Origin: Shigella phage sb2
Sequence record: PQ666540
Length of the DNA stretch: 64,000 nt
Strand: one strand, 5' to 3'
Made by a program: the position numbers and the translations under genes. A model generated the notes under the pieces. That model did no database searches. It had not been told where the DNA came from and was given only the letters and a program-made list of their open reading frames with translations. Of this stretch, positions 36,230 to 36,282 are shown piece after piece; the stretch's first letter is position 1, and each line of letters starts with the position of its first letter.

Positions 36230-36253
36230 GATGTTTAATTGCGGTACAGGTAT

Positions 36254-36282
36254 ATAATATCATATCCTGTACCAAAGTAAAC
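36254..36282 (-). promoter_or_regulatory. early-type promoter (GTTTAC -35, TATTAT -10) with embedded inverted repeat
   Basis: Minus strand GTTTAC-17 nt-TATTAT; inverted repeat GGTACAGG/CCTGTACC flanks the -10. Confidence 0.45.

Follow-up and report, generated by a model that had tools for sequence, protein, structure and literature searches.

Three intergenic inverted repeats in a T4-like phage are built into sigma-70 early promoters such that two complementary arms flank the -10 element. The repeats are real and nonrandom, and their architecture is that of a published class, the PeSLs ("promoter-early stem-loops") of T4-type phages, and hence already known. The hairpin that the arms can form most likely works as RNA, within transcripts that read through from promoters located farther upstream.

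Early promoters with complementary arms around the -10 element

The window, i.e., the whole 64,000-nucleotide stretch of DNA that was analyzed, comes from a T4-like phage (Tequatrovirus), to judge by its sequence: A 7-kb stretch around the sites has 97.6% identity with Shigella phage KNP5, hundreds of Tequatrovirus genomes match it as well, and the genes on the minus strand follow the T4 order (32, frd.3, frd.2, frd.1, frd, td, nrdA, and nrdB, continued by denA, rnlA, alc, pseT, cd, 31, rIII, 30.9, 30.8, and 30.7). Site 1 lies upstream of 30.7, site 2 at the cd.3/cd.2 junction, and site 3 upstream of frd.1. By sequence comparison, the three sites are orthologues of T4 early promoters, with the -35 hexamers of the T4 copies at 129918, 133331, and 146143, respectively. 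The preliminary description of these repeats had placed them in early-type promoters, and they are indeed embedded in promoters of the T4 early type; the orthologue of site 2 is annotated as a "predicted early promoter" in fPS-90 and appears as Pe133295 in T4. Downstream of the promoters, the gene 30.7 product matches the Pfam family Phage_T4_Gp30_7 (E=2.9e-50) and the frd.1 product matches DUF5417, while the 175-aa open reading frame (ORF) that follows site 2 has no Pfam match.

At all three sites, the promoter points to the gene that follows and has the intergenic layout GTTTAC-N17/18-TGn-TAYTAT, with an A/T-rich tract upstream of the -35 element (the upstream 15 nt being agtagtaaaataatt, caaagcaatttaaca, and aactttcaaaaagta) and with a Shine-Dalgarno sequence (SD; GGAG, GAGG, or GGAG) and then an ATG located 24 to 31 nt from the predicted transcription start. 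Read on the minus strand, site 1 is GTTTAC-ttt-GGTACAGG-atatga-TATTAT-ata-CCTGTACC (17-nt spacer), site 2 is GTTTAC-tttac-GGTAGAG-ttgtga-TATTAT-ag-CTCTACC (18-nt spacer), and site 3 is GTTTAC-ag-TAGGGTA-gtagtgtga-TACTAT-TACCCTA (18-nt spacer). Earlier, a GTTTAC -35 element, a 17- to 18-nt spacer, and a TATTAT-like -10 element inside a perfect inverted repeat of 7 to 8 bp had been described; the coordinates, the spacings (17, 18, and 18 nt), and the arms were all recovered, on the minus strand throughout, with perfect arms of 8 bp at site 1 and 7 bp at site 2 (Table 1). The imperfect repeat reported for site 3 is present as well, along with a perfect 7-bp one that had been missed, TAGGGTA (51615-51609)/TACCCTA (51593-51587). 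That the plus strand also carries TATAAT in the loop held for site 1 (36253-36258) and site 2 (40313-40318), because TATTAT is near-palindromic, but not for site 3, where the hexamer is absent.

Table 1. Features of the three sites and of related early promoters in the window, with predicted RNA fold energies and their z-scores.
Feature	Position	Strand	Remarks
Site 1, -35 GTTTAC	36277..36282	-	identical in T4 at 129918
Site 1, hairpin	36243..36273	-	fold -14.5 kcal/mol, z -4.1
Site 1, arms, perfect 8 bp	GGTACAGG 36273-36266; CCTGTACC 36250-36243	-	
Site 1, TGA + -10 TATTAT	36262-36254 (TATTAT 36259-36254)	-	
Site 1, SD and start codon of gene 30.7	SD GGAG 36227-36224; ATG 36217-36215	-	both outside hairpin
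Site 2, -35 GTTTAC	40338..40343	-	
Site 2, hairpin	40305..40332	-	fold -15.1 kcal/mol, z -5.3
Site 2, arms, perfect 7 bp	GGTAGAG 40332-40326; CTCTACC 40311-40305	-	
Site 2, -10 TATTAT	40319-40314	-	
Site 2, SD GAGG + ATG of 175-aa ORF	40281..40295	-	ORF in place of T4 cd.2
Site 3, -35 GTTTAC	51618..51623	-	
Site 3, hairpin	51587..51615	-	fold -13.0 kcal/mol, z -3.1
Site 3, -10 TACTAT	51599-51594	-	
Early promoter of 30.8	36624..36674; -35 36674-36669, -10 36650-36645	-	predicted RBS-masking subclass
Early promoter upstream of alc	43611..43668	-	fold -25.8 kcal/mol, z -4.6; T4 orthologue 136336
Second alc-type promoter/hairpin cassette	27886..27939	-	54-nt direct repeat, 94% identical to 43615-43668
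Weaker candidate upstream of rnh: ATTTAC -35, TATAAT -10	55608..55649	-	z only -1.0

The 5' arm falls within the spacer and the 3' arm spans about -6 to +3, and the predicted +1, taken as the 7th nucleotide after the -10 element, lies within the 3' arm: G at 36247 in site 1, A at 40307 in site 2, and A at 51587 in site 3. The predicted start of site 2 corresponds to T4 "Pe133295," the name of this promoter in the T4 record, which is the 7th nucleotide after -10 and lies within CTCTACC. At site 1, gene 30.8, located upstream, has its stop codon 2 nt ahead of the -35 element.

In the alignment, the window equals T4 through the site-2 promoter down to the SD, beyond which the two carry different genes; because homology to T4 stops here, site 2 marks a module junction. 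Likewise, some relatives lack the module that follows frd.2 at site 3, made up of promoter, mini-ORF, and frd.1. According to a note in the T4 GenBank record, an earlier report had the segment 133300-133313, which coincides with the site-2 loop, in inverted orientation. A loop-inversion "switch" was rejected: The inverted-loop form was not found in IMG/VR, and full-length matches to a synthetic inverted-loop query reached ≤93.6% identity in 50,697 phage records, which is the expectation for a native loop.

Sister promoters with hairpins occur elsewhere in the window. That of 30.8, preceded by a canonical terminator (36724-36703), has a 3' arm (36632-36624) that includes the SD, AAGGAG; for its T4 orthologue (130310), predicted SD accessibility is 0.91 in the promoter's own transcript versus 0.38 in the read-through transcript. 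At the alc promoter, the spacer and the SD GAGGA form the two sides of a long hairpin (~43663-43611), and the two copies of this alc-type cassette lie 15.7 kb apart; T4 has it in duplicate too (123093 and 136336). The weaker candidate upstream of rnh is flanked by AGUGGGAU/AUCUCACU, 8 bp with one G.U pair, and the T4 rnh promoter has another left arm, giving AGATTT/AAATCT.

Complementarity across promoters and across genera

Chance occurrence in AT-rich promoters had been named as the outcome that would speak against the repeats, and shuffled-sequence controls reject it: Upon folding the 35- to 40-nt cores as RNA against 200 dinucleotide shuffles each, we obtained z-scores of -3.1 to -5.3, and 0, 0, and 1 of 200 shuffles folded as well as the native sequence at sites 1, 2, and 3, respectively. 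Because promoters share a consensus and AT-richness, we chose a cross-promoter control that keeps both, in which the duplex energy between the spacer of promoter i and the 40 nt after the -10 element of promoter j was computed for 36 intergenic GTTTAC-N17/18-TAnnAT promoters in T4 and 31 early promoters in RB69 (Mosigvirus). In T4, the native duplexes averaged -11.45 kcal/mol versus -7.07 kcal/mol for the cross pairs (p<5e-5), and the mean longest Watson-Crick run was 6.22 in native versus 4.49 in cross pairs, neither value being matched in any of 20,000 permutations. The result was replicated in RB69 (-9.94 versus -7.14 kcal/mol, p<5e-5). Between the spacer and the 40 nt of upstream DNA, the T4 promoters displayed no excess complementarity (p=0.91); the complementarity therefore specifically spans the -10 element. 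Individually, 18 of the 36 T4 promoters and 17 of the 31 in RB69 fold with z<-2.

In the RNAfold predictions, the three stems grow to 12 to 14 bp because G.U pairs let the -10 hexamer join with the spacer, and an outer helix between the -35 hexamer and the leader is predicted at all three sites. Across the T4 promoters, neither extension was enriched (p=0.4-0.5 for the upper stem formed by the -10 hexamer and the spacer; p=0.23 for the outer helix), and hence support is confined to the two outer arms on either side of the -10 element. A search of Rfam yielded no family at the three sites, its sole match being sub-threshold and located at the 30.9 terminator.

A lack of conservation in related phages had been named as another outcome that would speak against the repeats; the site-1 hairpin is kept in T4, RB69, VR7, relatives in IMG/VR, and other genera. 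Its arms GGTACAGG/CCTGTACC are invariant in T4, RB69, VR7, and the IMG/VR relatives, with variation in the loop and the leader and with a single arm variant, a C-to-T change giving G.U; the IMG/VR harvests of orthologues comprised only 5 to 14 close relatives. More distant orthologues of the 30.7 promoter pair through other sequences: GGTGAGAGTCT/AGACTCTCACC in Winklervirus, TTGGTGTAGGAGTA/TACTCTTACACCAA in Marfavirus, and CTCCGTTGTAT/ATACAACGGAG in Karamvirus and Gelderlandvirus, where the 3' arm, ATA(C/T)AACGGAG, now includes the SD. In Jiaodavirus KpV477, the left arm and the hairpin are lost, and a canonical terminator lies upstream instead. Folding an alignment of ten 30.7-promoter orthologues gave 13 pairs, 5 of them compensatory with both sides changed; 95.4% of the alignment cells were paired versus 88.3% in shuffles (0/500), and sliding the partners by 1 to 3 columns left 28 to 44% of cells paired. 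The other sites behaved similarly. The RB69 orthologue of site 2, GGTGGAGTT/AACTCTACC, has single substitutions that still allow wobble pairing, site 3 has AGGGTA/TACCCT in T4 versus ATAGGGCTA/TAGCCCTAT in RB69, amounting to two compensatory pair changes, and the arms of the regB and denV promoters differ between T4 and RB69 yet remain complementary. As read from these alignments, pairing is kept via compensatory changes in other phage genera. For the invariance of the site-1 arms in T4, RB69, and VR7, a sequence-specific constraint could be an alternative cause.

The predicted hairpin in read-through transcripts

Because the start of the nested promoter lies inside the 3' arm, its own transcripts should be without the hairpin. 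Upstream early promoters exist for each site, at 36674 for site 1, at 52348 for site 3, and at 43668 or others for site 2; as no terminator intervenes, read-through RNA should carry the hairpin, which in the predicted RNA begins ~11 to 15 nt after the upstream stop codon. A terminator scan did not call the three hairpins, whose tails (gcaattaaac, aaaataaatg, and tcaaaactaa) have no U-run and whose stems are not G/C-rich, and the same scan did call the true terminators at 52398-52380 and 36724-36703. Lacking a U-tract, the hairpins are thus not canonical terminators. In T4, an upstream intrinsic terminator was found for 1 of 18 hairpin promoters versus 8 of 18 hairpin-less ones (p=0.018), a near-exclusivity which hints at a common role of the two at the 3' end of incoming RNA; in RB69, the trend had the same direction and was not significant (2/17 versus 3/14, p=0.64).

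Two subclasses can be distinguished among the T4 promoters: ~13 have the 3' arm right after the -10 element, and ~9, including regB, denV, alc, 30.8, and modB, have it over the SD. For both, we predicted the accessibility from SD to AUG in the own transcript, in the read-through RNA, and in a chimeric read-through RNA with the upstream half of another promoter, as a purely thermodynamic quantity on short RNAs without ribosomes. In the subclass with arms flanking the -10 element, predicted accessibility was 0.57 in own, 0.54 in read-through, and 0.45 in chimeric RNA (read-through versus chimera, p=0.014), while in the SD-containing subclass, the values were 0.60, 0.29, and 0.48 (p=0.004). In these predictions, the ribosome-binding site stays open despite the hairpin at the three sites and is, if anything, protected by it, and the hairpins at promoters 36674, 43668, and 27939 should mask the ribosome-binding site in read-through RNA.

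These predictions bear on the idea that the hairpin at the three sites masks translation in the manner known from T4 e, soc, 49, and I-TevI, rendering the read-through RNA untranslatable. The nested-promoter logic is identical, and the SD is indeed paired at the neighbors 36674, 43668, and 27939 and at about nine early promoters of T4. At the three sites, however, the SD lies 12 to 20 nt past the 3' arm, the outer helix toward the leader is unenriched (p=0.23), and predicted SD accessibility is alike in read-through and own transcripts of the T4 orthologues (0.53/0.54 at 129918, 0.68/0.72 at 133331, and 0.73/0.70 at 146143), making a mask very unlikely here. Improbable, too, is that the repeats are functionless by-products, be it chance palindromes, consensus-driven complementarity, or quasi-palindromes "corrected" by template switching in replication. 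Such an origin would fit with half of the T4 early promoters being without such a hairpin, with the unenriched -10/spacer part of the predicted stems, and with a generic sigma-70 scan, uninformative in this AT-rich window, that found promoter-like strings at chance level (71 versus 74.5 expected). Against it, chance and consensus are rejected by the shuffle and cross-promoter controls, the excess is confined to the spacer versus the downstream region, and the hairpin is kept upstream of the same gene in five genera with differing sequences. An exceedingly unlikely option is a dyad-symmetric operator for a dimeric phage or host DNA-binding protein that controls early promoters, e.g., for their shut-off, a process that is mechanistically unexplained (PMC3014915, PMC2988021). 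Although the repeat is centered on the -10 element, an ideal position for a repressor, and the site-1 arms are unchanged in T4, RB69, and VR7, the arms differ from promoter to promoter (GGTACAGG, GGTAGAG, TAGGGTA, GATGAGGTA, TTGACAAGATT, and others), which largely refutes this option. The protein operator suggested in the preliminary description thus lacks an arm sequence common to the sites, and this diversity rules out one shared operator; moreover, the position of the arms relative to -10 varies, with the 3' arm often 10 to 20 nt downstream at the SD, and orthologues pair via unrelated sequences that no single protein could read.

A less improbable rival is a role of the repeat as DNA. Here, the repeat would act as a recombination patch between promoter cassettes (PeSL modular shuffling/mini-circle) or as a cruciform or hairpin for structure-specific enzymes, with the RNA hairpin being incidental. 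The site-2 cassette sits at a gene-replacement junction, the frd.1 module is missing in some relatives, the 54-nt cassette is repeated at 15.7 kb, and recombination between PeSLs has been demonstrated in RB49/phi1 (PMC2839356). Yet homologous recombination needs repeated sequence, whereas complementarity persists here while the sequence changes. As DNA, each strand's hairpin would contribute no more than -5 to -8.4 kcal/mol, with loops of 14 to 15 nt when Watson-Crick pairs alone are counted and of ~12 to 15 nt at site 2, a size unfavorable for extrusion; cruciform extrusion, another of the functions proposed earlier, is therefore unlikely. The mismatches also point away from DNA. Internal mismatches in the best T4 stems were G.T in 6 of 6 cases (four independent) and A.C in none, and 7 independent G.T versus 1 A.C were counted once RB69 (1 G.T and 1 A.C by itself) and the orthologues were added; G.T mismatches count for sense RNA because they are G.U pairs there. 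The native-minus-cross excess went up when G.T was allowed and down when other mismatches were allowed. Sense RNA of the T4 promoters folds better than antisense (-12.84 versus -9.80 kcal/mol, p=2.5e-4; z -2.63 versus -1.79, p=0.008), a trend not replicated in RB69, where the absence of strand asymmetry (p=0.23) would suit a DNA role. Taken as the sole function, a DNA role appears unlikely to us, albeit with an appreciable chance of being right, and it is compatible with an RNA role, neither being exclusive of the other. Of the three functions offered in the preliminary description, an RNA processing hairpin in read-through transcripts fits best, in its RNA-hairpin part only; our literature search for a T4 start-site or processing-site dataset found none.

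Relation to known elements and significance

PeSLs were described in RB49 and phi1 (Arbiol 2010) as a composite of an A/T-rich tract, a sigma-70-like early promoter, a stem-loop, and SD/ATG, with the stem-loop often located between -35 and -10 or overlapping -10 and with G-T pairs allowed; one such stem-loop acted as a terminator in a lacZ reporter, recombination between PeSLs was shown, and analogous elements on T4 early promoters at IP loci were cited (PMC2839356). Comeau 2014 carried the concept over to the T4/PST pair, where the promoter reads TTTACW-N17-TAYWAT (PMC4122927). The elements in the window share the composite, the repetition of cassettes through the genome, and the location at indel or replacement junctions, and a hairpin of this kind is present in about half of the early promoters listed, 36 in T4 and 31 in RB69. 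They differ in that the stems of RB49/phi1 are G/C-rich (GGGG...CCCC) whereas those here are A/U-richer and without a U-tract, and in that the arms here lie on both sides of the -10 element, the PST stems being placed "just upstream" of the promoter in a legend of the 2014 paper (PMC4122927). For T-even IP loci, early-promoter/stem-loop elements are known (Repoila 1994, as cited in PMC2839356). According to that citation, these resemble the present sites in that a T4-type early promoter is combined with a stem-loop that is A/T-rich, weaker, and variable in size, and they differ in being reported, there, only for IP loci and in a gene-shuffling context. In T4 itself, the -10 element is surrounded by arms of 14 bp in the ipII promoter (65799) and of 8 bp in the ipIII promoter (66498).

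T4 e, soc, 49, I-TevI, and segB have late promoters nested in hairpins that sequester the ribosome-binding site, an arrangement that the reviews give for late genes only (PMC2988022, PMC3014915). There, too, long transcripts carry the structure and nested-promoter transcripts do not; those promoters are late (TATAAATA, gp55), however, with the SD/AUG always paired, whereas the three sites are early sigma-70 promoters with a free SD, and only sister early promoters (e.g., 36674 and 43668) pair it. With intrinsic terminators, the sites share a stable intergenic hairpin soon after a stop codon, unlike these having no U-run, no G/C-rich stem, and no call in the scan. As a published element class rediscovered in a close T4 relative, the finding itself therefore adds little. 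Relative to the literature consulted, the PeSL class is put on a firmer footing by a control that preserves the promoter consensus and was run in two phages, by covariation spanning five genera, and by the division into RBS-masking and RBS-sparing promoters.

We consider it probable, with room for doubt, that these are sigma-70 early promoters organized as PeSL-type cassettes, with the hairpin acting as RNA in read-through transcripts. Each site would be a strong early promoter (A/T-rich tract, GTTTAC, TGn, and TAYTAT) in which the parts that are free in sequence, i.e., the spacer and the stretch from -10 to about +3, have become mutually complementary. Polymerases arriving from an upstream early promoter would cross the intergenic space and yield read-through RNA with a stable hairpin, while those from the nested promoter would begin within the 3' arm and yield hairpin-less transcripts. 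At the three sites, the hairpin would be self-contained, with the U-rich promoter RNA folded on itself and the downstream ribosome-binding site open, and the upstream cistron may gain a structured 3' end serving as insulator, 3'-end stabilizer, or attenuator. At the sister promoters, with the SD in the 3' arm, translation from read-through RNA would be silenced. The conserved cassette may double as a homology patch or recombination linker where gene modules swap.

More tentatively, T4 might generally use promoters nested in hairpins as a two-isoform device for its early genes, a possibility that we rate as less than even. In about half of the early genes, the leader structure would then differ between own-promoter and read-through mRNA, and in one subclass (regB, denV, alc, modB, and 30.8), the SD GGAG would be paired only in the read-through RNA. 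RegB is blocked by secondary structure. If such a device exists, it would extend the paradigm of the late genes e and soc to early promoters and could explain how RegB inactivates promoter-proximal early mRNAs while sparing longer ones; for the subclass of the three sites, the role of the hairpin would be insulating the ribosome-binding site and capping the cistron before it. If the hairpin indeed works as RNA, a promoter, an RNA structure, and a ribosome-binding site would share ~60 overlapping nucleotides, and what becomes of each early mRNA would depend on the promoter at which it started; this would bear on two acknowledged gaps, namely, the shut-down of early expression and the cutting by RegB of only some GGAG sites.

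Apparently uninterrupted nrdB and td and paired alt-region copies

Both nrdB and td are read as uninterrupted ORFs in the window, whereas in T4 each of these genes harbors a group I intron, with I-TevIII and I-TevI, respectively, and mobE sits between nrdA and nrdB. Shigella phage sb2 seems to be without the two T4 group I introns, the endonucleases I-TevIII and I-TevI, and mobE. In the alt region, we observed tandem diverged copies (29287-29957 and 31342-32012; 71-72% identity) at a spacing of 2055 nt, a sequence arrangement that suggests two adjacent alt-like genes.

Features of the window, with coordinates
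Feature	Window position	Strand	Remarks
nrdB	45287-46465		392 aa; ORF apparently uninterrupted
td	49339-50211		290 aa; ORF apparently uninterrupted
175-aa ORF	39756-40283	minus	occupies the position of cd.2 in T4
Canonical terminator, G/C-rich with U-run	52380-52398	minus	~30 nt upstream of early promoter 52348
Canonical terminator, G/C-rich with U-run	36703-36724	minus	~30 nt upstream of early promoter 36674
Hydrophobic mini-ORF, 22 codons, conserved	51495-51563 (T4: about 146014-146082)	minus

Variants and surroundings of the promoter cassette

A direct repeat of 54 nt (94% identity; 27886-27939 and 43615-43668, with 15.7 kb between the copies) comprises a full cassette, i.e., early promoter, hairpin, and Shine-Dalgarno sequence, and an equivalent cassette pair is present in T4 at 123093 and 136336. 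The two tabulated terminators represent a “terminator upstream of promoter” version of the cassette. At the T4 ipII and ipIII promoters (65799 and 66498, in the T4 stretch L003), the arms contain TGTGA-N8-TCACA with the -10 element at its center, which resembles a pair of CRP half-sites at 8-bp spacing; the motif was found only at these two T4 promoters.

The space from the site-3 promoter to frd.1 holds the conserved mini-ORF (product MFAPYIMA..VMLVCLYLLIKAC), which has a GGAG of its own and carries no annotation in the T4 record AF158101. In three IMG/VR relatives (L023, L026, and L027), a different gene (taaggcctaatATGactaaagat...) directly follows the frd.2 homologue; the site-3 promoter, the mini-ORF, and frd.1 are all absent there.

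Loop and downstream gene at site 2

The loop separating the site-2 arms coincides exactly with 14 nt of T4 (133300-133313; 13301-13314 of the T4 stretch L001) that bear the GenBank remark “inverted complement of previously reported sequence.” The inverted form occurred neither in IMG/VR nor among 50,697 phage records, and the earlier report was therefore probably an old sequencing error at the hairpin. Homology between the window and T4 extends no further than the Shine-Dalgarno/ATG in the site-2 cassette, beyond which the 175-aa ORF, without a match in Pfam, takes the place of cd.2. From this alignment boundary, the ORF is a gene replacement anchored on the site-2 promoter.
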